Under the pieces are notes generated by a model. It was not told the DNA's origin, ran no database searches, and saw only the letters and a program-made list of their open reading frames with translations. A stretch of 64,000 nt of DNA from Cyanidioschyzon merolae (taxonomy: Eukaryota), in NCBI GenBank assembly GCA_000091205.1, contig AP006490.2. The stretch is one strand, 5' to 3'. This document shows positions 13,200 to 60,720 of this stretch, one piece after another. Made by a program: the position numbers and the translations under genes. Position 1 is the first letter of the stretch. The number at the start of each line of letters is the position of its first letter.

Positions 13200-13725
13200 T
13201 GCATGATTTCAAATGCTTTTTCGCGGTTTATAGCAGATGCGTTCCAAGTGCGTGCATTTTGAAGAAATAATTATCTAATGAAAAGGCATGGAGATGGAAG
13301 GCGGGGGATCCTAGAGGGCCGGTGTCATCGGGGGCCGGAAAAGTAACGAAAAGAAATCCACTTCTCGCCGGCCAACGAGCGACAAAGAGCAAGGAATGAA
13401 GAAGAAGAAAGAGAAGCGGCGCGAGAGACGGGAATGTATTGGTACACAGGGCACGAGGTCCCGGCATCCTTGTAATGGTGCGTTCCATCAGCGGCAAGAA
13501 ACGGATGGAGTTCGTGAACCAAGACTTCAACGCAGTCATCAAAATCAGACGGTGTGCAGTGCTGAAGAGAAGAGACTCGAGGAACTGACGCAATCCAATT
13601 TTGCGGGGTTACCTTTCAGAGTCGAAGTGTACAACGAGAAACTCAAGCCGATAGCAGCCGGCCGGTCAAACAAGACTGGGAGGCGTCTGCGGGTGCGTAT
13701 GTGTATATACCCTCCATGGTCGTGA
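13200..13725 (+). mobile_element. Internally deleted (MITE-like) derivative of the TnpB/Fanzor-like element: about 250 bp of the 5' region fused to about 270 bp of the 3' terminus
   Basis: 13205-13290 'gctttttcgcggtttatagcagatgcgtt...' matches the copy at 27600-27700 ('gctttttcgcggtttagagcagagacgtt...'), with weaker homology to about 13450. 13455-13720 then encodes '...MEFVNQDFNAVIKIRRCAVL...VEVYNEKLKPIAAGRSNKTGRRLRV'. This matches the element C-terminus and its 'ggccggtc...gggaggcgtctgc' 3' module. Confidence 0.6.
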
Positions 13726-14327
13726 AACGTTGTTCGTTTTAATGGTCACATATAGCATGCGACTCAACGGAATGCTGCGACGCAGAAACGACCTACCGAC
13801 CTCAGTATCCATCATGCGTACTCTGCAAGCGTGGTCGGAACAGGTTCGTGGCGGGCCAGTCATGGACCATTGCATACGCTGCCACGAAGCTGAACGGGAT
13901 ACTGGACCCTTGTCGATGTATTCGACGACGACGTACGACTTGAAACTGTGATGATATTTGGTTTTACAAATGCCGCTGGTACATCCATGCCTGCGCACTT
14001 GAGCTTGTCTCTGCAATGTTCCCCGAATACCATCGCGCGCTTTAGATCATCAATACCTGTATTGCCAGAGATAAGCATATCGTATAAATTCGGATCATGT
14101 CTTCACATGGTTTGCATTGATTTCGATATCAACAGCTCGCACAGCGTGCCCCAGGCTGAGGCGTCGAGCGTCGCCTCGAGGTCGCGAGACGCTGCCAAGA
14201 GGTGCCGATGTGCCTTTGCGCAGCGTCTTCGCAGCGGGCCCAGCGCGTACCATACGTAACCGGCAACGCTGCACATGAATCCATGCCCTGCCACAGACCG
14301 ATGAACACATGACCTGTTTAACGAATC

Positions 14328-20152: not shown

Positions 20153-20810
20153 GACGTTCCCGGCAAACGGTCCTGAACTGCAAGATGCAACGCATCAACG
20201 ACGAGGCGGCGTTGAGCGCGCCAGCTCGGTTGGCGGAATAATCTGTCAAAGAGAGGTTGCTGCACTGGTCGGGCGCATGCATTTGCGCGATGATCTCTGA
20301 TGATAAACATTTTGTTCGGCGAAGCGTACGGAATACAAGTTTCCTGACGATGATTAGGGGAGCGAAAATTTCGCTACTGCATGGTTCATACAGCTGAGAC
20401 CCAGCATGGTCACCATTCAATACTTGTTTGCAGCATACCCATGTTGATCGTGGCATGCAGCAGGCTTTCATTACCGAAGCTGACTTTTCAACATACGAGT
20501 AGCCGCCCAAAAGTGACAGGTAGTCCCAGCAGCACGATGCTACGGAGCTCGTTGAGGATGCACTGCGAGCAAACCGCCCAGCAGCGCTCTTTTGCACGTA
20601 CCGTAACTTGCAGGCGTATGCGATGACCAAAGTGATTTGGATGGCGTGCGTTGTTGCCTGACAAGAAGCTCGACTGTTCACGGAGGCGTCGCAGACCCGT
20701 CGTCGTTCACAAGATGTATGCACACGTACGAGCACAGTGTCCATCGCTATTCGATTTCTACGCATGCTGCTGAACAGGAATGCATGCATCCGAGCACACG
20801 CATCGATTCG

Positions 20811-20882
<72 letters not shown>
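20811..20882. repeat. (TGCG)n microsatellite, about 18 units
   Basis: 'tgcgtgcgtgcg...' run. It produces the (THAR)n and (ACVR)n artefact ORFs around it. Confidence 0.95.
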
Positions 20883-20883
<1 letters not shown>

Positions 20884-21335
20884 GGTTTCAAGCAGACTGC
20901 GACTTTTGCACGAACGACGAGTGAAGGTCGTTGTCGCATATGCTGTAAGCGTGTCTGCACGGTTCGGGAGTGGAATGCTGACAGACGCAGATTTATTGCG
21001 CTTAACGTTGCGGTTAGGTTTCTTCGTCTGGATCTGCGTCGTTCTTTACGTTTTTCTCGCGGTACCTCTTCCGTCAAAGCAAACAAGCGAGGCCAAGGGT
21101 CGTGCAGTGACTCTCGCAAGTGCGGCAGGCCCAGCGAGCTCGCGAGACAAGTCTGGGCGGCGCTGACGCTCCTGTTCTAGGTGAACGGTTACAGCATACT
21201 GAGCTAACGCTTGCTCTTTGATATACTAGGACGGATCAGTACTGTGTCCGAGGCGGTGCGGAGATAGGTCGACGAGTATCTGCAGACTCGCGTATCCACC
21301 GGAATACTCCTGAGACGGCCACAAAATATTTCGTC

Positions 21336-22821: not shown

Positions 22822-23351
22822 AACATTCATGTGATATCGATTGCATAAATTGGATATAAAGGCTTGTTGGCGTCCGCTCCCACGCGCAGTTGGACAATCA
22901 TGACTTTAGCGTATATTTATGTATTAAACGGACACACTTCTCTGCATTCCGTTTTGCGGCTCTCCGCATGGGTGTCGATCACGGCTAGGCGAGCCCATTC
23001 CGAGCAACTAGGCGTCAATCGCTGGCGCTGCGACCCACGGACTGATAGGACGCGCTTTAGACAGAATGGCCCATTGTCTTGCTCCTAGCGCGCTGCGTGC
23101 CGCGTCTCCATACGCGTCGGACTCGTCGCGGCAACGTTGCGAAGACCCGTCGCCTCCGCGGCTGTTCGTTTTGTACACGGCAGAGCGGCGACTCGGTCCT
23201 GGACCATGCGCGTGATGCCTGTCGTCGCCCCGCAAAACGGCTGTCTCTCTAAGCGCTACACGTTTGCGCATTGTTTGCGTGTCGGCATGACGCGCAACTG
23301 GCAGAACAGCGCCGTATAGCACTCGCACAGACGCGAGCGTGGACAGAAAAG

Positions 23352-23422
23352 CAGGTACAGGCATAGGTACAGGCATAGGTACAGGCATAGGTACAGGCAT
23401 AGGTACAGGCATAGGTACAGGT
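23352..23422. repeat. 12-bp minisatellite (GTACAGGCATAG)n, about 6 units. The homologous site in the other palindrome arm (about 27105-27125) has about 2 units.
   Basis: 'gtacaggcataggtacaggcatag...' run. It generates the (PMPV)n and (YACT)n artefact ORFs. Confidence 0.9.
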
Positions 23423-23620
23423 GTGGGCTCCAGGTCGGCCCCGGAGAAGGAAGCGTGTGCAAGTACCATGGCGGCTAAAAATCGTTCGCAAAATATCACT
23501 TTATAGGCATCGAGGCTACGCATCAACGCACGGACGATCACTCACTCGCTTTCCATAGGTCGTATCCTTCCTCCATTGCATCCGGTCTTCCTTACATCAA
23601 GGCTTTCACCGCTCTCCGCT

Positions 23621-23914
23621 TTAGTTCCCCTGGAACTTTTCCTTGGTGGCATCTGCTGCGTGCTCTATTCCTTTCTTCGCAGACTGACCGGTTTCCTTCA
23701 GGTGATCCACTGCATCACCCGCCTTGTCTTGAGCTTTCTCCTGTGCGGACTTTTGCCCGGTGAGATCACGGAACTTGTCAGAGATCGTCTCCTTCGCCGA
23801 TGAAAACGCACCAGTGACAGACTCTTTCGCAGAATCCAAAGCGCCACCCGCTTTCTTCTCCGTATCTTTGAGAGCCGACTGTGCTGAGCTTGTATCTTGA
23901 GCTCCGGAAGACAT
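23621..23914 (-). CDS. Small hydrophilic stress-protein-like gene, copy A (97 aa; CsbD/LEA/Con-6-like, K/E/A/Q/G-rich)
   Basis: 'MSSGAQDTSSAQSALKDTEKKAGGALDSAKESVTGAFSSAKETISDKFRDLTGQKSAQEKAQDKAGDAVDHLKETGQSAKKGIEHAADATKEKFQGN*'. The paralog in the other arm has the same length and about 75% aa identity. The listed ORF 23621..24934 is a chance read-through from the upstream element. Confidence 0.6.
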   Translation of the reverse strand: MSSGAQDTSSAQSALKDTEKKAGGALDSAKESVTGAFSSAKETISDKFRDLTGQKSAQEKAQDKAGDAVDHLKETGQSAKKGIEHAADATKEKFQGN

Positions 23915-24040
23915 ATCACAATTTATAATGCTTTCGTAAACTCGAAAAATGCATATGCAAATGAGGTACCACGGCGCGCGCGGTGGCCGCACAGCCACAA
24001 ACACAGGAGATTTTACCGCAACAGGACCCGCACGCACCGC

Positions 24041-25320
24041 AGTTTGAAAGTCGAACGACGGCGGTGTACAGTAGCGGCGAACGATGCGCCCTAGACGACG
24101 TCTCCAACTGAGGTGCAGACGCCTCCCGGCCTTTTTGGACCGGCCACCCGCTACTGCTTCCAACTTTTTCTCAAATAATTCCACTTTGGGAGGTTGTCCA
24201 ATAACGTTCTCTCGTGGCAACTCTGGAGGTCTGCTCTCGAGCACCGCACATGTCGTTATCTTGATAGCGGCGTTAAAGTCTCGGTTCACAAACTCCATAC
24301 GTTCCGTGCCATCATTGGTTGTACTTACTAATGCAAGCAGTCCCCGAACTTTCGCCCTCCTTTCCATTTGCGCTTCCGTCAGCGGTCCGTACTTTGCTAT
24401 TCCCTCAGGGCTGCTCCGACACTTTTCTATCTCGACACTTTGAAGTGTACACCCCAGTTCATGGTGTGTATACGATGTTCGGAACTCATCTATCGATATC
24501 GTAACAAAACGTCGTGCACACTCTATGTACGTTCTCGTCGTTAGAGCTGGTGTACACCTTTTTTGGGTCTTCCAGCGCCCTGATCCGTACGCTACTACCA
24601 GCCTTTGGCTCTCGTCCTCCTTCAGGGCGTTCAACTCATTGAAAAAGTTCGCGAGCACGCGCTGCCTCCCACCGTATAGACTCATTCGCAGACGAGCCCA
24701 CCGGGGCTTTGTATACTCCTCCCGTAGCGCCTCCCGATGAGGAACACGAACTTCCATGACTTTCCGAGAAGCTTGAAAGTGTGCTCCGCGGCCCGTCACC
24801 TCGCTCAAAGCTTCCAGGTGATCCTTCATTCCTGCATCCCATGCAGGAATTTTCTTCCTCGCATTCATGACTCCCGATTCTCGATAGTATCTTGCTCTCG
24901 GGAACCTCAAAAGACGCATGTCTTTCTGACGCAAGGAACCGTCAGTACTATCTTCCGCACGCTACGCTGCGCGATGGTTATGATACTCGTATTCTCAGGG
25001 TCCGCGCCAACGACAAAGCCGTTATCTTGCACTTTCTGCACCGCAGGATCCGCCTCCTTCTCATCTTCATGCTGCACCACGTCAACGACAAAGTCGTTAT
25101 CCTGCACTTTCTGCGTCGCGGTACCCGCCTCCTTCTCATCTTCTTGCTGCGCCACGTCAACGACAAAGTAGTTATCCTGCACTTCCTGTGTGGCAGGATC
25201 CGCCTCTTTGTTTTCTGCATCCTTCGTCACGGGCGGAGCCGAGGGCGGAACTGGCCGATCTGTCTTCAACCGCCGATAGTGTACACACAAGGCTACTCCA
25301 TCGGTTTCGATCATCCCAGT
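24041..25320 (-). mobile_element. TnpB/Fanzor-like element, copy 1. The 3' about 1.3 kb is present; the 5' end is truncated at the palindrome centre. It carries a frameshift shared with copy 3 and has lost its stop codon (TGA to TGT).
   Basis: ORFs 24907..25326 (- '...VGADPENTSIITIA') and 23621..24934 (- 'MRQKDMRLLRF...MEFVNRDFNAAIKITTCAVLE...GRSKKAGRRLHLSWRRRLGRIVRRY'). About 98% identical to the 3' half of the 27.4-30.1 kb copy. Confidence 0.8.
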
Positions 25321-25372
25321 GAACAACTTTTGTTTGCTGACTTTGAGCCGTTCGAAACTGAAGATATTCTTC

Positions 25373-26572
25373 GTTGGGATGATCGAAACCGATGGAGCAG
25401 CCTTGTGTGTACACTATCGGCGGTTTCAGGCGGATCATCCAGCTCCGTCTTCGACTTCGCCGGGACGGAGCATGAAGCGAAGAAAGAGGCGGATCGTGCC
25501 ACGCAGAAAGTGCAGGATAAAGAATTTCCCATTGACGCTACGAAGCATGAAGATGAGATGGAGGCGGATACCGCGACGCAGGAGATGCAGGATAACGACT
25601 TTGTCGTTGGCGCGGACCCTTGGAACACGAATATCATTGGCATGGCTGTACCCAAGCGTGCGGAAGATGGTATCAACGACAGCCCATTTCAGAGAGACAT
25701 GCGTCTGTTGAGATTCTCGAGAGCAAGATACTACCTAGAATTGGGAATCATGAATGCAAGGAAGGAAATTGAGGCATGGAATGCGGAAGTGAAAGAGCAT
25801 CAGGAAGCTTTGAGCGAGGTGACAAGCCGAGGAGCGGGCTTTCAAGCTTTTCTGAAATTCATGGAAGTTCGCATTGCGCACTGGGATGCATTGTGGGAGG
25901 AGTATACAAAGCCCCGGTGGGCTCGTTTGCAAATGAATCTATACGTTGGGAAGCAGCGGGCCTTCGCGAGTTTTTTCAATCAGTTGAGTGCCCTGAAGGA
26001 GGATGAAAATCAGAGGCTCGTAGTAGCGTATAGAGCAGGGCGCTGGGCGCCCAAGAAAGGCACTACGCCAGCTCCAACGACGGGGGCGTACAAGGAGTGC
26101 GCACGGCGTTTCGTCGCGATACCGATAGATGAGTTCCGTTCGTCCTATACACTCCATGAACTGGGGTGTACACTTCAGAGAGTGGAGATGGAAAAGTGCC
26201 AACGGAGCCCTGAGGAAATAGCAAAGTACGGACCTCTGACGGAAGAGCAAATGGAAAGGAGGGCGAAACTTCGGGGGCTACTTGCATTAGTAAGTACAAC
26301 CAGTGATGGCAAGGAACGTATGGAGTTTTTAAACCGAGACTTTAACGTCGCTATCAATTTAAGGAGATGTGCGGTGCTGGAGACGAGACCTCCAGAGCTG
26401 ACAAGAGAGAACTTTGTTGGACAACCGCCCAAAGTAGAACTATATGAGAAAATATGGAATCAGTAGTAGGTGGCCGGTCCAAAAAGGCTGGGAGGCGTCT
26501 GCACGTCAGTGGGAGATGTTTCGTCTAGGGCGCGTGCTTCGCCACTATTGTACACCGTTGGCGTCGTTCGAG
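25373..26572 (+). mobile_element. TnpB/Fanzor-like element, copy 2. The 3' about 1.2 kb is present; this is an older, more diverged subfamily member and is in-frame through the RuvC-I region.
   Basis: ORF 24892..26466 from '[16 protein letters not shown]' onward reads '...DNDFVVGADPWNTNIIGMA...ERMEFLNRDFNVAINLRRCAVLETRPPELTRENFVGQPPKVELYEK'. About 80% aa identity to other copies. The 3' module 'ggtggccggtccaaaaaggctgggaggcgtctgcacgtcag...gtacaccgttggcgtcgttcga' is present. Confidence 0.75.
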
Positions 26573-26605
26573 TGCGAAAGGTGTTCCCTTAGCGTCGCAG
26601 TGACA

Positions 26606-26899
26606 ATGTCTTCTGGGTCGCAGGATACCTCTTCTGGTCAATCAGTTCTCAAAGATGCCGAGGCGAAGGTAGGCAGTGCATGGGAATCCACGAAGGAGTC
26701 AGTTTCTGAAGCGTTCACTTCGGCCAAGGAGACTATCTCTGACAAGTATCGTGATCTCACCGGCCAAAAGTCCGCGCAGGAGAAAGCCCAAGACAAGGCG
26801 AGCGAGGCGGTGGATCACCTAAAGGAAACCGGTCAGTCCGCGAAGGAGAGTTTGCAGCACGCTGCAGATGCAGCCTCGGAAAAGTTAAAGGACGGCTAA
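26606..26899 (+). CDS. Small hydrophilic stress-protein-like gene, copy B (97 aa)
   Basis: 'MSSGSQDTSSGQSVLKDAEAKVGSAWESTKESVSEAFTSAKETISDKYRDLTGQKSAQEKAQDKASEAVDHLKETGQSAKESLQHAADAASEKLKDG*'. Same length as copy A, intact ORF, and it begins about 35 bp after the copy-2 element terminus. Confidence 0.6.
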   Translation: MSSGSQDTSSGQSVLKDAEAKVGSAWESTKESVSEAFTSAKETISDKYRDLTGQKSAQEKAQDKASEAVDHLKETGQSAKESLQHAADAASEKLKDG

Positions 26900-27703
26900 C
26901 GGAGAGAGCGTAGAAAGACTTGAGTGAAGGATGCACGGAAGTAAAACAGGAAGGATACGACCTATGGACAGCGAGTGAGTGATCGTCCGTGCGTTGATGC
27001 GTAGCCTCGATGCCTATAAAGTGATGTTTTGCGAACGATTTTTAGCCGCCATGGTACTTGCACACGCGTCCCGCTCCGGGGCCGACCCGCAGCCCACACC
27101 TGTACCTATGCCTGTACCTGCTTTCCTGTCCACGCCCGCGTCTGTGTGAGTGCTATACGGCGCTGTTCTGCCAGTTGCGCGTCATGCCGACACCCAAACA
27201 ATGCGCAAACGTATAGCGCTTATAGAGAGATAGTTGTTCCGCGGGGCGAGCGCCCGCAATCGCAGTCGAGGGCACAATCGACTCGATCGCTGCCGCACGG
27301 GGCGCGACGCATCGCACGCTGTGGTGCAGCGCAGCGCGTACCGGCCTCTGGAAGCAAGTTGTGCGCAGCAGCGATCTGAGGCCTTTATCCATCGGTGCAG
27401 CGTCTCGCGCGGTGCACGCATCGCGCTCGGTGAGCGTACCCGGGAGATCAGGCAGATATGAGACACGACGCGCATGTCGCCGCTGAAGGGAAACGCGATC
27501 CTGACCATTCGTTGACGTGTTGTTCTAACGTAAAACTTGTATTTGCATTGGAATCGTAACAGAATATATTGTTTCATCTCAGTCGTGTTTCAACCTTCAA
27601 GTAAAAATACTCGAGCGCTTTTTCGCGGTTTAGAGCAGAGACGTTAATAGTGCGTTCTAAATCAAAAAAAAAAAACTAAAAAAGGAAAGTTCTGGACAGC
27701 GAA

Positions 27704-30068
27704 GTGGAGGACCCTGGAGGGTCAGTATCGCTGGCAGGCGAGAAAAAAGGAGCAAAAGAGCCAAACATAGAAGAACGAGACAAGACGAAGAAGCAGACGG
27801 GGGAGGTCCTACGTCAATGGCTGCAAGAAAGACGACAGTACGACGAGATGGAGGTGAAAACCTGTCTTCTCGGCTATAGCAAGGATTCGTAGAAGAAAAA
27901 ATTGCGAGAGTCCATCAGAAACTGTGACGAGTCGGACTCCATGAGTTTTCGTAAGACTTCTTTAGGAATGATGCATCTAGCGAGGGAGATGTATCGCGAC
28001 GTGACGCACATGGAAACAGTCGATGTTCCAGAAAAATTTTGCAACAGGAACTTTATTCTTCACCTGATGCTTGGTACAGGGGAAACATCGAGGAGAAATG
28101 AGCGGGTTCACGCCCTCCACGAAAACTTCGCGGAATTCCGCTTCGAGGGTACTCGGTACAGAGGTGACTCGAATATTTACATATACGGGGCGATGAAGTA
28201 CCTCACGAATCTGAAGAACCATTTGACAGTGAACCTTGAACGTTTCATGAGACGCTCGGTGTTTGCACTCTACCGGGGCATCTCTCGCACAGGAATACGG
28301 GCGATTACCAATGGCATCACCAACGAGCACCAGAATGAAGATGAAGTCGAATTTGTCGACAAGAAGGCGTCAAACGAGCGCACGAATGAAGCCTCTGTAA
28401 TCCGTGCGGTTATACAAGAGCGCCGTGCAATCTTGGGGTTGGCGGATCCAATAGACAAGATACCAGAGTTGAAAAAAAATATAAGGAAAGACACTATCGC
28501 CTCATCCTGCGATATTTCGTGTTTTTGCACCGAGAGCCCGAACGCAGTGCGCAGATGAAGCCGAGTGAGGAAAAAATATGAAGAGTGGGAGAGACGGAAA
28601 GCTTTCCTAATGGGGAAGCGCTTCAACGTCGTTCCAATGTGCAGCATCAAGTCACATTTTGTGACTGTCGACCCAACGTACGTTACAGCAAATTGAAGGA
28701 GATCTGTCCGGAGTTCAATGTAAGGAAGACAGAGTTCGCCGGTGAAAACCGGGAGACGTACTGGAAGAACATCTTCAATTTCAAACGGCTCAAAGTCAGC
28801 AAACAAAAGTTGTTCACTGGGATGATCGAAACCGATGGAGTAGCCTTGTGTGTACACTATCGGCGGTTGAAGACAGATCGGCCAGTTCCGCCCTCGGCTC
28901 CGCCCGTGACGAAGGATGCAGAAAACAAAGAGGCGGATCCTGCCACACAGGAAGTGCAGGATAACGACCTTGTCTTGACGTGGAGCAGCATGAAGATGAG
29001 AAGGAGGCGGATACCGCGACGCAGAAAGTGCAGGATAACGACTTTGTCGTTGACGTGGTGCAGCATGAAGATGAGAAGGAGGCGGATCCTGCGGTGCAGA
29101 AAGTGCAAGATAACGGCTTTGTTGCTGGCGCGGACCCCGGGAATACGAATATCATCACCATCGCAGCACCGAGGCGTGCGGAAGATGGTACTGACGGTTC
29201 CTTGCGTCAGAAAGACATGGGTCTTTTGAGGTTCCGGAGAGCAAGATACTATCGAGAATCGGGAGTCATGAATGCGAGGAAGAAAATTCCTGCATGGGAT
29301 GCAGGAATGAAGGATCACCTGGAAGCTTTGAGCGAGGTGACGGGCCGCGGAGCACACTTTCAAGCTTCTCGGAAAGTCATGGAAGTTCGTGTTCCTCATC
29401 GGGAGGCGCTACGGGAGGAGTATACAAAGCCCCGGTGGGCTCGTCTGCGAATGAGTCTATACGGTGGGAGGCAGCGCGTGCTCGCGAACTTTTTCAATGA
29501 GTTGAACGCCCTGAAGGAGGACGAGAGCCAAAGGCTGGTAGTAGCGTACGGATCAGGGCGCTGGAAGACCCAAAAAAGGTGTACACCAGCTCTAACGACG
29601 AGAACGTACATAGAGTGTGCACGACGTTTTGTTACGATATCGATAGATGAGTTCCGAACATCGTATACACACCATGAACTGGGGTGTACACTTCAAAGTG
29701 TCGAGATAGAAAAGTGCCAGAGCAGCCCTGAGGGAATAGCAAAGTACGGACCGCTGACGGAAGCGCAAATGGAAAGGAGGGCGAAAGTTCGGGGACTGCT
29801 TGCATTAGTAAGTACAACCAATGATGGCACGGAACGTATGGAGTTTGTGAACCGAGACTTTAACGCCGCTATCAAGATAACGACATGTGCGGTGCTCGAG
29901 AGCAGACCTCCAGAGTTGCCACGAGAGAACGTTATTGGACAACCTCCCAAAGTGGAGTTATTTGAGAAAAAGTTGGAGGCAGTAGCGGGTGGCCGGTCCA
30001 AAAAGGCCGGGAGGCGTCTGCACCTCAGTTGGAGACGTCGTCTAGGGCGCATCGTTCGCCGCTACTGA
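27704..30068 (+). pseudogene. TnpB/Fanzor-like RuvC-family protein gene, disrupted (in-frame stop SKDS*; about 1-bp deletions near 28667 and 28960; a possible 100-nt GT..AG intron at 28530-28629)
   Basis: Reconstructed order: N-terminal '...MYRDVTHMETVDVPEKF...' is followed by a WED-like '...[36 protein letters not shown]'. An acidic 25-aa repeat of about three units precedes 'GADPGNT' (RuvC-I D). Next come '...LVVAYGSGRW' (RuvC-II position, Glu apparently replaced), a degenerate Zn-ribbon 'TSYTHHELGC...C', then 'NRDFNAAIKI' (RuvC-III D). Compare the TnpB consensus RDxNAAxNIxRRG. Confidence 0.7.
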
Positions 30069-30075
30069 ACCACTG
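29930..30075 (+). ncRNA. Candidate omegaRNA-like conserved 3'-terminal module, overlapping the ORF's last about 45 codons and ending at the element terminus
   Basis: A single string is conserved in all copies and in both solo fragments: 'ggtggccggtccaaaaaggccgggaggcgtctgcacctcagttggagacgtcgtctagggcgcatcgttcgccgctactg(tacaccgccgtcgttcgacttt)'. Short hairpins are visible: GGCC...GGCC, GAGG...CCTC, CGTCT...AGACG. By analogy, the TnpB/Fanzor guide RNA scaffold is encoded at the 3' end of the ORF and the right end. Confidence 0.3.
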
Positions 30076-30132
30076 GCGGCAGCGTTTTTCTTTTGAAAAG
30101 CGTTTGCTGCTCGGGGTGCTAGCGTTCCTGAA

Positions 30133-34959: not shown

Positions 34960-35300
34960 CGCTATGATGAGCGAAGCACCCGTTGTACGCAGTTTTGCTG
35001 CGTCGTTCCGTGCAGGCCTCTGACGCACCTGTTTGCGTAGCAGCGGTCAAACGTGGAACGTCAGCAGACGAAAACTGCCCTGACGCATCGATTATACGCA
35101 GTTTTGCTGCGTCGTTCCGTGCAGGCCTCTGACGCACCTGTTTGCATAGCAGCGGTCAAACGTGGAACGTCAGCAGACGAAAACTGCCCTGACGCATCCA
35201 TTGTACGCAGTTTTGCTGCGTCGTTCCGTGCAGGCCTCTGACGCACCTGTTTGCATAGCAGCGGTCAAACGTGGAACGTCAGCAAACGAAAACTGCCCAG
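34960..35300. repeat. Tandem repeat of a 109-bp unit, about 3.2 copies. Each unit is bounded by an inverted repeat (GCAGTTTTGCTG...CAGACGAAAACTGC).
   Basis: Units start at 34989, 35098 and 35207 and are about 97% identical. The repeat generates the repeated 'RSFAASFRAGL' and 'MRQRPARNDAAKLR' artefact ORFs. Confidence 0.9.
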
Positions 35301-43399: not shown

Positions 43400-43732
43400 T
43401 CGACGGACAACGTACCAGGTTTTTTCGTCGTTCCAAACAGGTTCTGGATCTCGATGTGGTAACGCAATATCTTTGCCAGAATAAATACAGGACGCGTGTC
43501 CACGCAGCGCCTCCAGCTAAACGAAAGCGAGTTCCGGGCCCAGGTGCGTACGCCGCAGACGGACCGGAATCCTTCTACGAGGACTCGAAACTCGCAAGTG
43601 ACTGTTTGATGGAGCTTCTCGGTGATCCGCGGCGGAGTGAGCTCTTCATCGCCTTGACTGCAGCAGCGGAAAGCGGATGGGACTTTGTCGCGCTGGCTGC
43701 GCGATCGGCGAAGCCTGTGCTCACACACCAAC
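43400..43732 (+). pseudogene. Trehalase gene fragment. 43562-43732 is about 95% identical to 49329-49501 of the intact trehalase gene. Upstream there is weaker protein-level similarity ('RVHAAPPAK' vs 'RYHAPAAEG').
   Basis: 'ccggaatccttctacgaggactcgaaact.gcaagtgactgtt.gatgga.cttctcggtgatccgcggcggagtgagctcttcatcgccttgactgcagcagcggaaagcggatgggactt' is shared. The fragment's 'ESGWDFVALAAR' is a degenerate version of the trehalase 'ESGWDFSSRW' motif. It ends about 12 bp before the right end of the 43.7-kb element. Confidence 0.75.
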
Positions 43733-46046
43733 AACGCCGCTCTAAAGTCGAACGACGTCGGGCGTGTACAGTAGTGGCAGCAACCGCGCCCTCGACAAGA
43801 CGTCTCCAACTGACGCGCAGACGCCTCCCCGTCTTATTGGACCGGCCACCGATTACTGCTTCCAACTTTTTCTCATATAGTTCCACTTTGAGAGGTTGCC
43901 GCACAAAATTCTCTCTTGTCAGCGCTGGAGGTCTTCTTTCCAGCACCGCACATCTCCTGATATTGATAGTGGCATTAAAGTCTCGATTCACAAACTCCAT
44001 ACGCCTCTTGCCATCATTGGTTGTACTTACTAGTGCAAGTGGCCCTCACACTTTTGCCCTCCTTTCCATTTGCTCCTCCGTCAGCGGTCTATACTTCTTT
44101 ACATCTTCAGGGCTCCTCTGGCACTTTTCCATCTCGACCCTCTGAAGTGTACAACCCAGCTCGTGGTGTGTATAAGATGTTCGGAACTCATCTATCGGTA
44201 TTGTAACGAAACGCCGTGCGCACTCCTTGTACACCCTCGTCGTTGGAGCTGGCGTAGCTCCTTTCTTGGGCGCTCAGCGCCCTGCTCCGTACGCTACTAC
44301 CAGCCTTTGGCTCTCGTCCTCCTTCAGGGCGTTCAACTCATTGAAAAAGTTCGCGAGCACGCGCTGCCTCCCACCGTATAGACTCATTCGCAGACGAGCC
44401 CGCCGGGGCTTTGTATACTCCTCCCGTAGCGCCTCCCGATGAGGAACACGAACTTCCATGACTTTCCGAGAAGCTTGAAAGTGTGCTCCGCGGCCCGTCA
44501 CCTCGCTCAAAGCTTCCAGGTGATCCTTCATTCCTGCATCCCATGCAGGAATTTTCTTCCTCGCATTCATGACTCCCGATTCTCGATAGTATCTTGCTCT
44601 CGGGAACCTCAAAAGACGCATGTCTTTCTGACGCAAGGAACCGTCAGTACTATCTTCCGCACGCTACGCTGCGCGATGGTTATGATACTCGTATTCTCAG
44701 GGTCCGCGCCAACGACAAAGTCGTTACCCTGCACTTTCTGCGTCGCAGGACCCGCCTCCTTCTCATCTTCCTGCTTCACCGCGTCAACGACAAGATCGTT
44801 ATCCTCCACCTCCTGCGTCGCAGGATCCGCCGCTTTGTTTTCTGCATCCTTCGTCACGGGCGAAGCCGAGAGCGGGACTGAACGATCTTTCTTCAACCGC
44901 CGATAGTGTACACACAAGGCTACTCCATCGGTTTCGATCAACCCAGTGAATACCTTTTGTTTGCTCATTTTGAGCCGTTTGAAATTGAAGATGTTCTTCC
45001 AGTACGTCTCCAGGTTTTCACCGATGAACTCTTCCCTGTTAACATCGAACTCGGGAATGATCTCCCTCATGATGCCATAAAGGATTCTGGAGTCGATAGT
45101 CACAAAATGTGACTTGAAGTTGCACAACGGAACGACACTGAAGCGCTTACCCACTAGGGCAGCCTTCCGTCTCTCCCACTCTTCATTTTTCTCTCACTCA
45201 GCTTCATCTCTGCCTTGCGTTTGAGTTCTCGGTCCAAAATCACGAAATACCGCAGGACGAGGCGATAGTATCTTTCCTTATCTTTTTCAACTCTGATATC
45301 TTTTCTGTTGGATTAACCAACCCCAGTACCGCACGATGCTCTTGTATAACCGCGCGGATGACGGAATCCTCATTCGTGCTCTTGTTTGACGCCTTCTTGT
45401 CGACGACTTCGACCTCATCTTCATGCTTACGATCTTTCGTGATGCCATTGATAATCGCCCATTTTCCATTGCGAGATAGGCTCTGGTAGAGTGCAACCAC
45501 GGCGCGTATCATGAAACGTTCGAGGTTCGCTGTCAAATGGTTTTTCAGATTCGTGAGGTACTTCATCGCCCCATATGTGTAAATATCCCCGTCACCCTTG
45601 TATCGAGTACCATTGAAGCTGTAAAAGGGATGTTTTTCGTGGAGGGCATGCATTCGCTCGTTTTCCCTCCGCGCTTCCCCTGTAACAAGCATCAGCTGAC
45701 GAATAAAGGTCATGTCGAAAAACTCGTCCGGAATTTCGACTGTTTCCATATGCGTCACGTCGCGATACATCTACCTCGCCAAATGCATCAGTCCTGACGA
45801 CGCCTTGACAATACTCTCGGAGTCTGACGCAACACGTTTTTCGATAGCGTCTCGCAACGTTTCCCTGTTGGGATCCTTGATATGTTTAAGAAGACAGCCT
45901 TTAACCACCATCTCGTCGTACAGTTGTCTTTTTTGCCGGCTTCGACGTAGGACCTCACCTTTTGCTTCTTTTTCTCTTCCTTTTCTTCTGGAATCGGCAC
46001 TGTTTTTTGTTTTTTTTTCTGGCAGCCGGCGACACTGGGCCTCCAA
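43575..46046 (-). pseudogene. TnpB/Fanzor-like protein gene of copy 3, disrupted
   Basis: Same domain order as the 27.7-30.1 kb gene. The N-terminal half is about 75% aa identical to that copy and the C-terminal half about 98%. Confidence 0.7.
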
Positions 46047-46345
46047 GATCGTGGACTTGCTTTTTCATATCTTTCCTTTTTTTGTTTTTTTTGAAAAGGA
46101 ACGCTCTTTGGACGCTTGTGGTATATGCTGCGAAAAAACACTTGACTAGACTTGTTTGAAGTTTTAAACAAAAATGAGCTGAAAGACTGTACTTTGCTAC
46201 GAACTGAACGGAAATCCAACTTTTTACAGCTGAACAACACGCTTCTGATCGAGATCACGTTTCCCTTCAACGGCGAGATACATGTCGTGTCTCATGTCTG
46301 CCTGATCTCCCAGGTGCGCTCACCGATCGATGAAGGTCACGTGTC
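43745..46345 (-). mobile_element. TnpB/Fanzor-like element, copy 3. Near full length, minus strand. It carries a nonsense mutation (E to stop before MYRDVTH), the frameshift shared with copy 1, and others.
   Basis: Minus-strand ORF pieces 45771..46046, 45240..45770, 44609..45154, 44274..44636, 44046..44234 (other frame) and 43575..44000. The last reads 'MEFVNRDFNATINIRRCAVLERRPPALTRENFVRQPLKVELYEKKLEAVIGGRSNKTGRRLRVSWRR'. The 3' terminus is '...ctactgtacacgcccgacgtcgttcgacttt'. Confidence 0.8.
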
Positions 46346-48235
46346 CGACACCCCGCCTTGGCACTTGCGTGTTCGCATCGCGCAGCAGCAAAAATCAGGT
46401 GTCCTAAATCGAAAACTCACGTGGAGTAGTCTCGTGCTATAGGCTATGTCGCTGGTGCTGACGCTACTGCCCATCGCATTACCGCCCTGACAGACATGGA
46501 GCTGTTGGGGCCTGGCACGATACCTCTCGACGCTTCTATCAAATGCGTAGCGTTCTCTGCGGCTTACGCTTGTGTGGATAAGATACGCATCACTCTACTC
46601 AATAGGAATTTTGTTAGTTTTATTGATCGTAAACAAACAAGGTACGGTAGGATTCCTGAACACGGATACAAGTTTATTTCCTATGCTTGTAATGCATGCT
46701 GCACGGACGCTGGAATAAGGAACTGACATGAATTTTGCTTCTTTCCGGCGTCATGGGCTGGTACTGATGACCGTTCAAGTCATTTTCCATGCTATCGTCA
46801 TTGCCCAAGTTATGGTGCCTGCTACTGTCTCGGACCCGGTGATCTTGACAGAGGCATAGCACACAGGTAGCGTCCATATCTGCCACGACGTTTGAGCCTT
46901 GCATCTCGCCTGGCACGATCGAGGAACCCGATAAAAGCACATACTGTATTCTTATCTACTCTATAAGATTAGTTTCAAGAGCCTAACCTGTATGTAGTTG
47001 TGCAAGCACCAAACCGTAAACTTATCTGCACCCCCTACGCCCCCCGCCATTCCTTAAGCAAGCGGATGTTCGTTAGCCACCTGCTGATTTTTCCCTTCCA
47101 GTAGTAAAACTGCTCAAGAGACGGATTTTTTCTCTATCCCTTACCGTTCAATGGAAAGAAAACGTTTCACGACCATGTAGGGTAAATTAATATCCAATCA
47201 CAGACGTCTCCTAGCCTTTTCCACCGGCCCCCTGCTATCGGTTGCAGCTTCTCTTTGTACAATTCGACCCTGAGAGGATGTCCCAGAAAGGTGGACCGCG
47301 TCAGCTCCGCCGGTCGCGCCTCCATCACCATTCGTCTTCTGATATTGATGAGGTTTTGTCGAAAACGCTAGTGATAGAGCTGAGGTCAAGAAACGATCCA
47401 TCTTGACTGGCGCTATCAAACGATCGGTACCAGAAGCTGGAGGCTGCAGCCGGCACCAGGTGCTCTGGTGACGGCATGCTGGCCGTGAATAGTGCGCGAC
47501 GAAGCCGCACAGCATGCTACGGTTTCCTAGTACGTAGGTAAAACAAGCGCGTACCCTAAACGTTCATATTCAGGGCGATGACTAGTCGCCGCCACGGTAT
47601 CCTGGGAAAAATATGCGAGTGCACTTTGGTTGCTCGACTATCGAGCACCATCACGAGTATGGGTGCACTTCACTACACGGTTTCCAACGATCATTGAATC
47701 CACCATCATCCAAAAGTGACGAAAAGTCACAAGCGCACCGGCCTCGTACCTCCAAGTCAGGACTTGCCCATCAGCACGCACACAAATTTCGTGACCCGCT
47801 GCGCATTCACCAAACGAAAGGAAGCACGCGTTTCTTCATCCAGGGATAGAGGGTTCCAAATTCCTTCAGAGACTGCCGATGCTTCGCCCGAACCCAGACC
47901 ATCAGCTGCGGTATGCCCACGAGCATAAACCGGATGCCTGCGATTATCTGCGTCATCAATGTAAATCCTGCCCACACCAGTACCTCAAATGTGTGTCGTT
48001 CGGACACGACACAAGCTCGAAAACCAAGCCGTATGGGGCCTGTCGCAAGCGCCAGTGGCACACCAGGTTGCCAAGCTCACAAATGCCAAAGCACACCACG
48101 CCTATCCAAAAAAAGGCGGCAGCGTCAGCAGCGGAAAGCACCAGCTCTATTGATCAAGAAGCGCATCGATGCGCTTCTCGATCGACGAAACGCGAGCTCC
48201 GCGAGACGCATTCGCCATCAGTTGACGTATAGAAC

Positions 48236-50332
48236 GTGTGGTACTATGCAACTGTTCAGTACCGTAACCTGAGCACCATGACATTGAAAGTCATAGAAGC
48301 GTATGTGCATATGGCTTTTCGTCTGGGCGCGTTGGCGCCTGCATTTCCGAGTTCGGTTGTATACTGTGCCGCCAACTGCGCTGAAACTAGTGCCGGCTGT
48401 GAAAAGTCGCTGCTCGCAGTCGTTCAGCGACTCCGCATTTTCGCTGACTCAAAACACTTTGTGGATCTGCCTCTGCTACCTGGGCGAATACCGGAGCGGA
48501 TCATAGAGTACTGGGACGCTGAGTTCGGTCGCCGCGTTGTTGAGGAGCCGCTGGCGGGCCCAGGCGAAGCAACCAGCGGGCTCCGCGAGGCCGAGCGCGA
48601 GCCCCCTGTGCCCACCTTTCGGCTAGCACGTGTCGAGGGACCTGACACCGACTTCGAGGAGGTACGTCGCTTTCTGTTAGAGCACTTTGACTACGCGCCT
48701 GGTGGCGACTTGCTTGCCTGGATCCCGCGGGACTTGCCGCAGTTGGAGCTGGACCCTGAACCTGGAACGACAGCGACTGGTTCGCCACCGTTGCTGCACC
48801 AGATCTGGCGCTGGATGAAAGCACAGGATGTCGATGCGGGAAACTGGCTCATGGATATGGTCGCACGCTGGCGAAAACTCGGTCGCGAGACCTCGCCGAT
48901 GGTGTTCAGAGAACCTGAACGCTTCAGTCTGCTGCCCCTGAAACATCCATTCATCGTGGCTGGTGGTCGATTCCGCGAGTGCTACTACTGGGATACCTAC
49001 TTCATCGTTCGCGGCCTTCTGGTCTGCGGTATGTGGGAGACTGCGCGCTGCTGCGTTGAGAATCTTCTCGATCTGGTAGAGCAGTTCGGCTTTGTGCCCA
49101 ACGGTGCCCGCATCTACTATCTGAATCGTACCCAACCACCACTACTTTCGGATATGGTGCGCTGCATTGCAGAGCATGCACATGCCGGATGGGACGTGAT
49201 GACATTTTTGGGGCGAGCGTTGCCGCTTCTGGAGCGTGAATACAACTTCATGATGGAGCAACGGGCGGTAAAGATGCGCGCAGGGGGAACCCTAAATCGT
49301 TACCATGCGCCCGCAGCCGAAGGACCGCGACCGGAATCCTTCTACGAGGACTCGAAACTTGCAAGTGACTGTTCGATGGAACTTCTCGGTGATCCGCGGC
49401 GGAGTGAGCTCTTCATCGCCTTGACTGCAGCAGCGGAAAGCGGATGGGACTTTTCGTCGCGCTGGCTGCGCGACCGGCGAAGCATGTGCTCCATCCGAAC
49501 GCAGTTGATTATCCCTGTGTGTTTCAACAGTTTCATGCTTCGCATGGAACGCAATCTCGCTTTTCTCTACCAATGGTATATCAGCGGTAGCCGACCGGAA
49601 ACGGAAAAAGGTAGCATTTTCGAACAGCGGTTACCTGGAAATGAGGAGGTCCCCAATGACCCAGTGACAAGAGACTTGCTTGATCGAGTCCAACAGCGGG
49701 TCTCTACGATGCAAAAGTATTTATACGTACCAAGCCGGGATCAATGGATCGACTACGACCTGGAGGCCGATACAACGACCCTGCAAACGGTTGCAGATTG
49801 GCGGCAGACGGTGAGTTCGAGCAACTTTTTCCCGCTCTGGAGCGGCATCCTCGAGCATATCGAATCGGAACAAGCGGCTTCCATCGCGCGTGGCGTGCTC
49901 CAGTCGTTCGAGGAGAGTGGTCTCCTGCAAAACGGAGGCGTTGTTGCAACATTGGTGACCGATTCGGGTCAACAGTGGGATTACCCGAACGCGTGGCCAC
50001 CCGTGCAACTCCTGCTGCACGAAGCGTTTGCGTCGCTAGCGACGCAGTTTTCCGCGAATGAGCAAATCTCCAACCGAGCTCGCGAACTTTCTTTGCAGAT
50101 AGCCATCCGATTTCTGCGTTCTGTATACCAGGGCTGGCTTCGGAGTGGTGATCTTTTCGAGAAGTATCACGCGGAAAAGGTCGGAGAGAGTGGCAACGGC
50201 GGTGAATACGTTCCCCAGGTTGGATTCGGATGGACAATTGGGGTGAGCCTTGCGCTCTTGTCCAGTGTATGGCAGCTTGATCGAAGCCTGCTCGCACAAG
50301 TCTGGCAGAGGGTATCCGATGAAGCCACATAA
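48236..50332 (+). CDS. Trehalase (glycoside hydrolase family 37), about 690 aa; start may be the Met at about 48278
   Basis: Trehalase signature 1 'GGRFRECYYWDTYF' and signature 2 'QWDYPNAWPP' are present, plus 'AESGWDFSSRW'. Confidence 0.92.
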   Translation: MWYYATVQYRNLSTMTLKVIEAYVHMAFRLGALAPAFPSSVVYCAANCAETSAGCEKSLLAVVQRLRIFADSKHFVDLPLLPGRIPERIIEYWDAEFGRRVVEEPLAGPGEATSGLREAEREPPVPTFRLARVEGPDTDFEEVRRFLLEHFDYAPGGDLLAWIPRDLPQLELDPEPGTTATGSPPLLHQIWRWMKAQDVDAGNWLMDMVARWRKLGRETSPMVFREPERFSLLPLKHPFIVAGGRFRECYYWDTYFIVRGLLVCGMWETARCCVENLLDLVEQFGFVPNGARIYYLNRTQPPLLSDMVRCIAEHAHAGWDVMTFLGRALPLLEREYNFMMEQRAVKMRAGGTLNRYHAPAAEGPRPESFYEDSKLASDCSMELLGDPRRSELFIALTAAAESGWDFSSRWLRDRRSMCSIRTQLIIPVCFNSFMLRMERNLAFLYQWYISGSRPETEKGSIFEQRLPGNEEVPNDPVTRDLLDRVQQRVSTMQKYLYVPSRDQWIDYDLEADTTTLQTVADWRQTVSSSNFFPLWSGILEHIESEQAASIARGVLQSFEESGLLQNGGVVATLVTDSGQQWDYPNAWPPVQLLLHEAFASLATQFSANEQISNRARELSLQIAIRFLRSVYQGWLRSGDLFEKYHAEKVGESGNGGEYVPQVGFGWTIGVSLALLSSVWQLDRSLLAQVWQRVSDEAT

Positions 50333-60489: not shown

Positions 60490-60720
60490 ATAGGGCATCG
60501 AGTTGGCCTCGAAATGCGATCGTGAAAAGTCGTGAGACGTGTCGGCAAACGCTGTGGCGCCAGCGTAGCACGCGTGGTGACGAGAGCGAACCTAGTGGGG
60601 CAACCGCTCCTGATCGAGGTGTGCCAGGAGAAGCTGAAACCGATAGCATGCGGTCGGTCGAAAAACAAAAGGCTGGGAGGCGTCTCCATGTCGGTGCAGA
60701 GACGTGCACTCTATGGGTGT
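60490..60720 (+). mobile_element. Solo 3'-terminal fragment of the TnpB/Fanzor-like element, more diverged, lying 115-345 bp downstream of the CIA30-domain gene stop
   Basis: It encodes '...RANLVGQPLLIEVCQEKLKPIACGRSKNKRLGGVSMSVQRR', matching the element's '...RENVIGQPPKVELFEKKLEAVAGGRSKKAGRRLHLSWRRR'. DNA 'ggtcggtcgaaaaacaaaaggctgggaggcgtctcc' matches the 3' module 'ggccggtccaaaaaggccgggaggcgtctgc'. Confidence 0.6.

Follow-up and report, generated by a model that had tools for sequence, protein, structure and literature searches.

Probable ectopic gene conversion between linked copies of a dead Fanzor1-type element in a Cyanidiales red alga

The question raised by this locus is how copies of one mobile element come to be nearly identical over part of their length and widely diverged elsewhere. 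The whole stretch of DNA analysed, hereafter the window (64,000 nucleotides), holds four copies of the element plus fragments: A (24047-25372, minus strand), B (25375-26571, plus strand), C (27424-30070, plus strand) and D (43726-46329, minus strand), the last being the feature under study. A preliminary description had reported four homologous copies with non-uniform divergence, and both observations are borne out: C and D are full length, A and B are 5'-truncated, and in change-point models four segments beat one by 120 BIC units for D against C, and three segments win by 88 BIC units for D against A. The same description had also proposed a generally homogenised 3' module and the propagation of a shared frameshift from a defective master; on these two points our analysis leads elsewhere. 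The mosaic is probably the product of non-allelic (ectopic) gene conversion between linked copies, superimposed on an older inverted duplication.

Four dead copies of a Fanzor1-type element

All four copies in the window are dead Fanzor1-type (TnpB-like) elements, and the host is a Cyanidiales red alga, its CysRS being 70-71% identical to those of Cyanidiococcus and a related genome. Fanzor proteins were reached only through a profile of homologues: the reconstructed D protein had no match in Pfam and none in a single-sequence search of the PDB, and a profile built from 10 homologues matched SpuFz (the S. punctatus Fanzor, 8GKH) with E=3.5e-7; this alignment covers about 360 positions and brings the RuvC motifs into register. 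A Foldseek search placed Fanzor1 chains in its top seven positions (E 1.7e-12 to 3.8e-10); as the query model was poor (pLDDT 50, TM about 0.3), only the ranking of these matches was used. The family consensus contains the RuvC order D...E...RD, in a 15-letter motif and in NRDFNAAINI, facing IDP, LDEYKTS and NRD in SpuFz, and copy D keeps these residues despite its broken frame. Between the E and RD motifs the CCCC zinc finger is absent. The consensus has two Cys and two His there (TSYTHHELGC...EKC...), and two distant homologues, P0044 and P0047, have two to three Cys in the same interval; a variant metal site is possible.

The element comprises one ORF, lacks terminal inverted repeats (none were found between its left and right ends) and finishes on the right in a hairpin. 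No recognisable transposase is encoded, as judged from the Pfam search of the reconstructed D protein. A majority consensus of about 80 metagenome copies gives an open frame of 815 codons, and 282 relatives lie in metagenome contigs with unrelated flanks, a multi-copy mobile-element context. Family copies are old and many, about 80-85% identical to one another and about 88-90% identical to their own consensus; most are pseudogenes, and a few retain long open frames.

The right end of D (43726-43782, minus strand) consists of a conserved box, GCCACTACTGTAC, followed by the terminal hairpin. Equivalent right ends lie at 24025-24082 (minus strand) for A, 26537-26594 (plus strand) for B and 30054-30115 (plus strand) for C, the hairpins of A and B belonging to one class (class 1) and that of C to another (class 2). 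RNAalifold applied to the last 56-450 nt returned no convincing consensus fold, and an Rfam scan of the whole window returned no match; the hairpin became visible only after single copies had been folded and realigned with a covariance model. It is then 88.8% paired, with double changes at 7 of 12 pairs, and none of 500 shuffles reached the observed values. No inverse copy of the box (up to three mismatches) occurs near the 5' ends of C or D, nor were Helitron2-style asymmetric repeats found.

Each of the four copies is a pseudogene with further private stops or frameshifts, which extends to the whole set the private nonsense and frameshift mutations already noted. D is a full-length, 'short-form' pseudogene. 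Relative to the family consensus it carries three stops, GAG>TAG (~45770), TGG>TGA (~44275) and CGA>TGA (~44047), and 1-bp deletions at consensus nt 1080, 1175 and 1697. Sequencing error, the caveat attached to the shared indel, is excluded for the lesions of D, since they are reproduced in the other assemblies that cover them: the full set recurs in locus L061, L060 shows every lesion within the part it covers (from consensus nt 591), and L002 covers the last ~360 nt only. An intron around the stops near 'SSCGIS*FW...' in D was considered and rejected, the family consensus being continuous and in frame there. Directly upstream of D, as in a subset of family copies, lies an optional 5' module of 663 bp (46330-46992, minus strand); together they make a 'long form' of about 3.27 kb (43726-46992). 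At the other side, the 160 bp abutting the right end of D are a copy of a segment of a trehalase gene located 5.6 kb away.

C is likewise a full-length, short-form pseudogene, with unusually high divergence over the first ~700 nt (65-85% identity to consensus). A RIP-like or deamination bias does not explain this divergence: transitions amount to about 54% of changes and show no directional bias. Within the coding region, D contains about two units of an in-frame tandem repeat of 75 bp (44704-44858, minus strand), and A (25008-25206) and C (28930-29122) contain about three units each. The junctions of the palindrome formed by A and B adjoin this repeat.

An inverted duplication and bounded tracts of near-identity

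A and B are not transposition products: they form the left and right arms of an inverted duplication that takes in host flank. The palindrome spans 23229-27245, with arms at 23229-25320 and 25377-27245 that are about 82% identical and an asymmetric 56-nt spacer between them (25321-25376). Each ~2-kb arm joins the 3' 1.27 kb of the element to about 820 bp of host flank, and the flank of A pairs with that of B, not with that of C. Inverted arms extending into non-element flank and a short asymmetric spacer are the features of a fold-back inverted duplication. The earlier suggestion of duplication rather than autonomous transposition thus holds for A and B. The identity of B to each of A, C and D is about 82% and uniform along its length. 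Another head-to-head palindrome of this element, independent of the first, was found elsewhere.

Near-identity between the copies is confined to discrete tracts. In inverted orientation, A matches the 3' 1.29 kb of C (28784-30067) at 98% identity, with 26 differences over 1307 columns, and this internal tract ends about 13 nt short of each copy's own right-end hairpin. Half of these differences (13 of 26) cluster in columns 1796-1909, and A equals D at all 13, so that the interior of A (24069-25352), 98% identical to C, contains a D-type patch at 24900-25012. D itself is nearly identical to A over 44275-44720 (minus strand; 99.6-99.8% to A 24573-25018), a tract of 436-447 bp with two mismatches in 447 columns. 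By alignment column, D and A are 89.6% identical in 1436-1789, 99.8% in 1790-2225 and 81.5% in 2226-2745; the last 520 bp of D are as diverged from A as unrelated family members are. The 3' portion of the tract, 316-327 bp, is common to C as well (D 44275-44601, 99.7% to C 29237-29563).

The initial picture of the mosaic needs corresponding revision. A 3' block of 1.3 kb at about 98% identity up to the right end had been attributed to three copies; it exists between A and C only, and D shares just 436-447 bp. The figure of about 70% nucleotide identity for the 5' halves fits the first ~750 bp of C and D (72%) but not the next ~570 bp (85%), so the divergence is not flat. The coincidence of the start of the high-identity block with the truncation point of the palindrome copies is trivial for A and C, because A ends there; in D a step from about 81% to about 91% near column 1412 is weakly supported (models with K=5 and K=4 lie less than 2 BIC units apart), and the true near-identity block begins about 355 bp further in. 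The idea that C is a clean chimera at the truncation point is weakened, its excess divergence lying mostly in the first ~700 nt and the column-1412 step being poorly supported by BIC.

At the flanking divergence, a run of 436 sites with no more than a single mismatch has a probability of 8e-20 or less. In 3520 pairs of family copies that are less than 90% identical, the longest run containing no more than one mismatch has a 99th percentile of 103 bp; it reaches 435 bp in D/A and 316 bp in D/C. Similar bounded blocks occur in other family pairs, also in 5' and central regions. Identity to the family consensus is level from one end of the element to the other, the 100-nt medians being mostly 87-92% (82-92% overall). 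A generally homogenised 3' module is therefore not a property of this family.

The 1-bp deletion that gives the '...IITIAQRSVRKIVLTVPCVRKTCVF' frame is present in A (~24971) and D (~44673) and absent from B and C, a two-against-two distribution that agrees with the initial observation. It lies in the patch of D (44602-44714, minus strand) where D equals A and differs from C at 13 sites, and which also holds six derived substitutions. Of the 89 family segments aligned, only D, its orthologues in two other assemblies and A have the deletion with its six linked substitutions. The haplotype sits inside the D/A tract, with 10-19% divergence on either side, and A has none of the other lesions of D, including the TGG>TGA stop immediately outside the tract. 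These three points argue that the deletion was moved by ectopic gene conversion and not inherited from a spreading defective master, contrary to what the shared frameshift had been taken to imply.

Origin of the mosaic

Gene conversion of part of the element, already suggested in the preliminary description, is the best explanation because the tracts are bounded and internal to the homology and because right-end hairpins and flanks differ between copies. Near-identity exceeds chance within otherwise diverged paralogues, and the flanks of D are unrelated to those of A and C; since the copies keep unrelated flanks and homology stops inside the repeat, segmental duplication does not apply. An old duplication of fold-back type made the A|B palindrome by copying the 3' half of one element with its host flank. 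A lies about 3.4 kb from the 3' half of C, with which it forms inverted repeats; the two were homogenised over the 1.29-kb internal tract, each retaining its own right-end hairpin and flank. The 436-447-bp tract was exchanged between D and A, 19.7 kb apart, carrying the derived cluster with the 1-bp deletion, and C has the 3' 327 bp of that tract. Transfer of the patch from D to A is favoured since the orthologues of D carry it. No donor was found among 80 fetched loci for the A/C sequence that differs from D, the best other copy being 85-89% identical. At least three events are needed, and an account in terms of a discontinuous tract, or of mismatch repair acting in patches, is no less possible. 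The conversions were probably ordinary double-strand-break repair by homologous recombination between nearby repeats, not element activity, and the apparent 3' bias would arise only from truncated copies having just the 3' half available for recombination.

Could A and D nevertheless descend from an already-defective master, multiplied by trans-mobilisation, with the frameshift inherited? Pseudogenes make up most of the family, any mobility has to be supplied in trans given that the element encodes no recognisable transposase, and the deletion is exactly common to both. However, the deletion haplotype is in none of the other family sequences examined, identity between A and D falls to 90% and 81% on the two sides of the 447-bp tract, and the stop of D immediately outside it is missing from A, which moreover belongs to a palindrome with host flank and hence is no transposition product. 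We consider such descent highly improbable. Selection on the 3' part, that is, on the RuvC domain and guide-RNA scaffold, might also mimic homogenisation, and the conserved hairpin with its compensatory changes and the intact consensus ORF are in its favour. Yet the 5'-to-3' identity to consensus is flat family-wide, the 99.8% identity is at the nucleotide level in copies that all have frameshifts and stops, and the terminal 520 bp of D, the expected guide-RNA site, are its least similar part (81%). With a flat family profile and four pseudogenes, a selective explanation is scarcely credible.

Two further readings concern the assemblies and the activity of the element. In the first, repeats were assembled from metagenomic reads into a chimeric consensus, and some or all of the near-identical blocks, above all the patch of D type in A and the A/C identity, would be artefacts. 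Several independent short-read metagenome contigs end exactly at the right end of A. The segment 25375-28763 lies in the opposite orientation in a second contig, whose hybrid arm resembles A on the centre side and C on the hairpin side; this speaks for recombination between the A and C arms, but, given the contig breaks, the difference could be assembler ambiguity and not biology. The patch of A was found in no other assembly, by exact-protein look-ups of the A-specific ORF and in neighbouring-gene contigs, which stop at the right end of A. On the other hand, the structure of D, deletion and stops included, is reproduced in L060 and L061, and the D=C block recurs between L061 and L062 in a second strain, so it predates the strain split. 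The left junction of the patch falls in a 6-nt interval (columns 1789/1796), too short for an assembler's k-mer (de Bruijn) path switch, and comparable bounded blocks occur in other family pairs. An artefact is accordingly unlikely. As for the element, Fanzor-nuclease cutting or mobilisation might have been followed by homing-like repair, with the conversions, the palindromes broken in mid-element and the piece of host sequence at the right end of D as its footprints. TnpB-family nucleases stimulate donor-site gene conversion (review PMC13565253), a second, independent palindrome exists, and the 160-bp trehalase copy lies exactly where the guide of D would be read. But the flank, and not the interior of the element, would be the target of a guide, the D tract is internal and ends short of the right end, every local copy is dead, and ordinary recombination between linked repeats suffices. 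Element-driven breaks thus appear very unlikely; if they did occur, the locus would be in-genome evidence for Fanzor-promoted, homing-like gene conversion in a eukaryote.

Comparison with known systems

Ectopic gene conversion is known among dispersed transposable-element copies such as yeast Ty and primate Alu. The likeness lies in near-identity tracts of a few hundred bp to about 1.3 kb within diverged paralogues, in the transfer of linked variants, and in the strongest effect falling between close, inverted copies. Nothing essential differs; the tract here carries a frameshift and so mimics shared ancestry. A lesion common to transposon copies can thus travel by gene conversion, and is no proof of a defective master; ages or phylogenies computed from such mosaic copies would be wrong.

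The family type is itself already known, the copies here being a further member and the process an ordinary, unremarkable one. CMe-1A is the Fanzor1 family of Cyanidioschyzon merolae (Bao & Jurka 2013, PMC3627910). Going by its published description only, it shares with the present family a Cyanidiales host, a length of 2.6-3.3 kb, a single Fanzor1 ORF, the lack of terminal inverted repeats, many old copies (~80-85% pairwise) with few long open frames, and an optional 5' module of ~0.65 kb, given as 635 bp for CMe-1A (PMC3627910). The copies here are about 88-90% identical to their consensus, whereas about 80% is reported for CMe-1A (PMC3627910), and that paper makes no mention of a right-end hairpin or a conversion patchwork. 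In MCi-2, a Fanzor1 family of Mucor circinelloides, 5' regions differ and the 3' Fanzor-coding region is nearly identical, at 99% (PMC3627910). The resemblance to copies with different 5' parts and a nearly identical 3' region is limited: MCi-2 involves the whole 6-kb 3' region at 11 loci in subfamilies, whereas here 1.3 kb is common to only two linked copies and 0.44 kb to a third, in a family without overall 3' homogeneity.

The right end recalls the 3' subterminal hairpin of Helitrons and the subterminal hairpins of IS200/IS605 elements: at one end only, a hairpin that varies in sequence but keeps its pairing comes after a conserved box. The present element differs from them in that no partner for an asymmetric terminal inverted repeat was found at the 5' end, neither a RepHel nor a Y1 transposase is encoded, and the alignment shows no conserved CTRR terminus. 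The family offers a natural collection of Fanzor1 right ends that is well sampled and has its hairpin conserved in structure. The locus also shows that linked repeats recombine actively in a compact, intron-poor red-algal genome, and among the outcomes are a possible inversion polymorphism and a gene that palindrome formation has duplicated. The host flank in both palindrome arms carries an intact, helical small gene of about 97 amino acids.

Copies of a Fanzor1-type element

Self-comparison of the window reveals four homologous copies of a roughly 2.6-kb element. Two are full length, copy D, the copy under study (43726-46329, minus strand), and copy C (27424-30070, plus strand), and two are 5'-truncated, copy A (24047-25372, gene on the minus strand) and copy B (25375-26571, plus strand); small extra fragments lie at 13493-13731, 47161-47351 and 60596-60685. 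Stops or frameshifts disrupt each of the four. The Fanzor ORF contains a 75-bp (25-aa) in-frame tandem repeat with a variable number of units: about two in D (44704-44858), about three in A (25008-25206) and C (28930-29122), and four in P0001, a near-intact homologous protein.

The conceptual protein displays the RuvC motifs of TnpB-like nucleases, including NRDFNAAINI, and gave no match in Pfam or single-sequence PDB searches. A database search returned 49 relatives, nearly all from JGI metagenomes and pre-annotated as DUF8286, and a profile of ten relatives matches 8GKH, a Fanzor structure from Spizellomyces punctatus, at E=3.5e-7, with the catalytic motifs lining up. Although the structure model of P0001 is poor (pLDDT 50), its top seven matches in the PDB are Fanzor1 structures without exception. 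The clade of the window element has not kept the strict CCCC zinc finger. Scanning metagenome contigs yielded 282 relatives, of which 80 loci (L numbers below denote such family loci) were retrieved for a majority consensus that holds an open frame of 815 codons; individual copies are mostly pseudogenes, but in L001 819 codons stay open.

The element belongs to an already known family type. CMe-1A of Cyanidioschyzon merolae, a matching, unclassified family of about 150 old copies of ~3 kb, is devoid of terminal inverted repeats and has a 635-bp 5' module in common with another element (Bao & Jurka, PMC3627910). Likewise, no terminal inverted repeats were found in the window element, and D has an optional 5' module of 663 bp (46330-46992), present in only some family copies (long form). 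An older, highly diverged Fanzor 3' remnant lies upstream of this module (47148-47351). The order of remnant or right end, module and element is seen again in L018, L039, L075 and L044, a recurrence suggestive of nested or tandem insertion beside existing right ends. Neighbouring genes are eukaryotic, intron-poor and closely packed; the CysRS beside copy C is 70-71% identical to that of Cyanidiococcus yangmingshanensis and a related genome and 58% to that of Cyanidium, placing the host among the Cyanidiales red algae.

Mosaic identity and the shared deletion

Identity along the copies was followed with sliding windows and maximum-likelihood change-point models in one MAFFT alignment of A, B, C and D in gene orientation, to which all columns refer. 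Divergence is non-uniform, as the preliminary description had proposed: D/A and D/C change stepwise, whereas D/B and A/B are uniform (~82% over the whole overlap, best fitted by one segment). D and A are 89.6% identical in columns 1436-1789, 99.8% in 1790-2225 and 81.5% in 2226-2745; for D and C the values are 72.4% (90-843), 85.5% (844-1860), 99.2% (1861-2225; 99.7% from 1910) and 81.3% (2226-2745), the low identity over the first ~700 nt arising because C itself is unusually diverged there (65-85% to consensus). The same description had the copies about 98% identical up to the right end, which holds for A and C (26 differences in 1307 columns) but not for D, whose near-identity is limited to an internal tract of 436-447 bp (window 44275-44720, A 24573-25018) and whose last 520 bp are diverged to the same degree as in any unrelated family member. 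Chance falls far short of explaining the D/A tract: its binomial tail probability is 8e-20 or less, and the longest stretch containing no more than one mismatch reaches 435 bp, against a 99th percentile of 103 bp among 3520 family pairs below 90% identity.

Half of the A/C differences (13 of 26) cluster in columns 1796-1909, and at each of these 13 A equals D. Identity between A and C stops about 13 nt short of the terminal hairpin, the hairpins fall into different sequence classes (A class 1, B-like; C class 2), and A's flank is homologous to that of B, not C; the A/C near-identity would thus be a conversion and not a duplication. The 1-bp deletion lies inside the D/A-specific patch, linked with six derived substitutions. 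Among 89 aligned family segments, this haplotype occurs only in A, D and D's orthologues L060 and L061; since the latter come from two other assemblies, the deletion is genuine in D and not a sequencing error. D's other lesions are absent from A, and its TGG>TGA stop lies directly outside the tract boundary. This restricted distribution argues against the idea that the shared frameshift marks a spreading defective master, while the bounded patch, together with A/C identity that ends before the hairpin, favours the gene conversion proposed at the same time. On the simplest reading, gene conversion carried the patch between D and A, so that a frameshift common to copies would here reflect conversion, not descent. 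The left junction of A's patch falls within 6 nt (columns 1789 to 1796), which leaves an assembler too little room to switch paths; the main caveat is that exact-protein look-ups of the A-specific ORF did not find A's patch in other assemblies.

Origin of the tracts, the palindrome and a second strain

It is well known that transposon copies convert one another. Directly observed here are the tracts with their boundaries, the deletion as a linked part of the transferred haplotype, and the structure of the palindrome; ordinary homologous repair between linked repeats would have caused the tracts, through a proposed series of at least three events, in which A and C were homogenised, D and A exchanged 447 bp, and C came to share the 3' 327 bp of that stretch. 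For the patch, the direction from D to A is favoured, since D's orthologues already have it. A functional 3' module under selection, another possible source of such a pattern, does not explain it: across the family, identity to the consensus stays level between the 5' and 3' ends (medians per 100 nt are mostly 87-92% and span 82-92% in all), all window copies are disrupted, and D is least similar at its extreme 3' end. Other family copies also show bounded blocks of near-identity, in 5', central or 3' parts of the element, and pairs such as L074/L026 (consensus 1722-2196), L009/L014 (778-1183) and L007/L004 (101-349), otherwise 81-88% identical, share 250-475 bp stretches containing no more than one mismatch, although some such pairs may represent orthologues of diverged strains. 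Conversion between copies thus seems general in the family and not bound to a 3' module. Within the window it looks biased towards the 3' part because truncated copies hold only 3' sequence for recombination.

A and B represent the two arms (23229-25320 and 25377-27245, about 82% identical) of an inverted duplication, parted by an asymmetric 56-nt spacer. Both arms extend into host DNA for ~820 bp, which bears out, for these two copies, the suggested spread by duplication rather than transposition. An intact small gene of ~97 aa, starting about 50 nt past the element's right end, is present in both arms (23621-23914, minus; 26606-26899, plus), so the inverted duplication doubled a host gene; its paralogues are 82% identical in DNA and encode a Lys/Glu/Ala-rich, helical (LEA-like) protein. 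In A, the element frame runs on into this gene, giving a 437-aa ORF. A 12-bp unit, AGGTACAGGCAT, repeated 5.8 times at 23353-23421 in the left flank, matches a ~50-bp length difference between the arms. An independent head-to-head pair of 5'-truncated copies exists at an unrelated locus (L078:1-1503, L081:1-1717, L082:1-1810), with its junction at element positions ~1551/1661, ~100-200 nt from that of the window and beside the 75-bp coding repeat; mid-element palindromes seem recurrent in the family.

Contig Ga0080006_1231026 (L061, L062) is syntenic with the window, its unique sequence differing at about 0.5% of sites. It also has the block shared by D and C (98-100% identical, 82-86% outside), so this conversion predates the strain split. 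The 3.4 kb between the inverted A and C arms (25375-28763) is inverted there, and L062 has a hybrid arm, A-like on the centre side and C-like on the hairpin side; an inversion polymorphism through crossover in the repeats and assembler ambiguity over the 1.3-kb inverted repeat are equally plausible. The right end of A is also the exact end of several short-read contigs. Compared over 46063-46262, 46528-46927 and 46263-46327, window and L061 depart from the 0.5% baseline: short patches at D's 5' end and in its 5' module have 9-25% mismatches, and a 35-bp deletion in the window copy is flanked by CGGTGAG direct repeats, probably reflecting further small conversions or slippage.

Right ends and adjoining sequences

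Right ends of the element, in the window copies and L001-L081, consist of a conserved box, GCCACTACTGTAC, followed directly by a 12-20-bp hairpin (D 43726-43782 and A 24025-24082, minus strand; B 26537-26594 and C 30054-30115, plus strand). Hairpin sequences form at least three classes and keep pairing (88.8% of cells paired), with compensatory changes, both sides being altered in 7 of 12 pairs, and none of 500 shuffles reaching the observed values; in A and B the hairpin has decayed. Such a hairpin could serve as a structure recognised in mobilisation or as the final stem of a guide RNA.

The 160 bp adjoining D's right end (43562-43722) copy, at 95.7% identity and with 2 bp deleted, part of the interior (49329-49491) of the trehalase gene, which is intact 5.6 kb away. 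This copy sits where a putative Fanzor guide would be read, its first 21 nt matching the trehalase antisense strand with two mismatches. It is also found in L002, L060 and L061 and absent beside other family copies; transduction and repair filler DNA are possible sources. Elsewhere in the window, an unrelated tandem repeat at 34986-35298 comprises 2.9 copies of a 109-bp unit (98% identical), and an ARTH/ACVR peptide motif repeated in ORF translations around 20700-20900 suggests a short tandem repeat at 20.7-20.9 kb.
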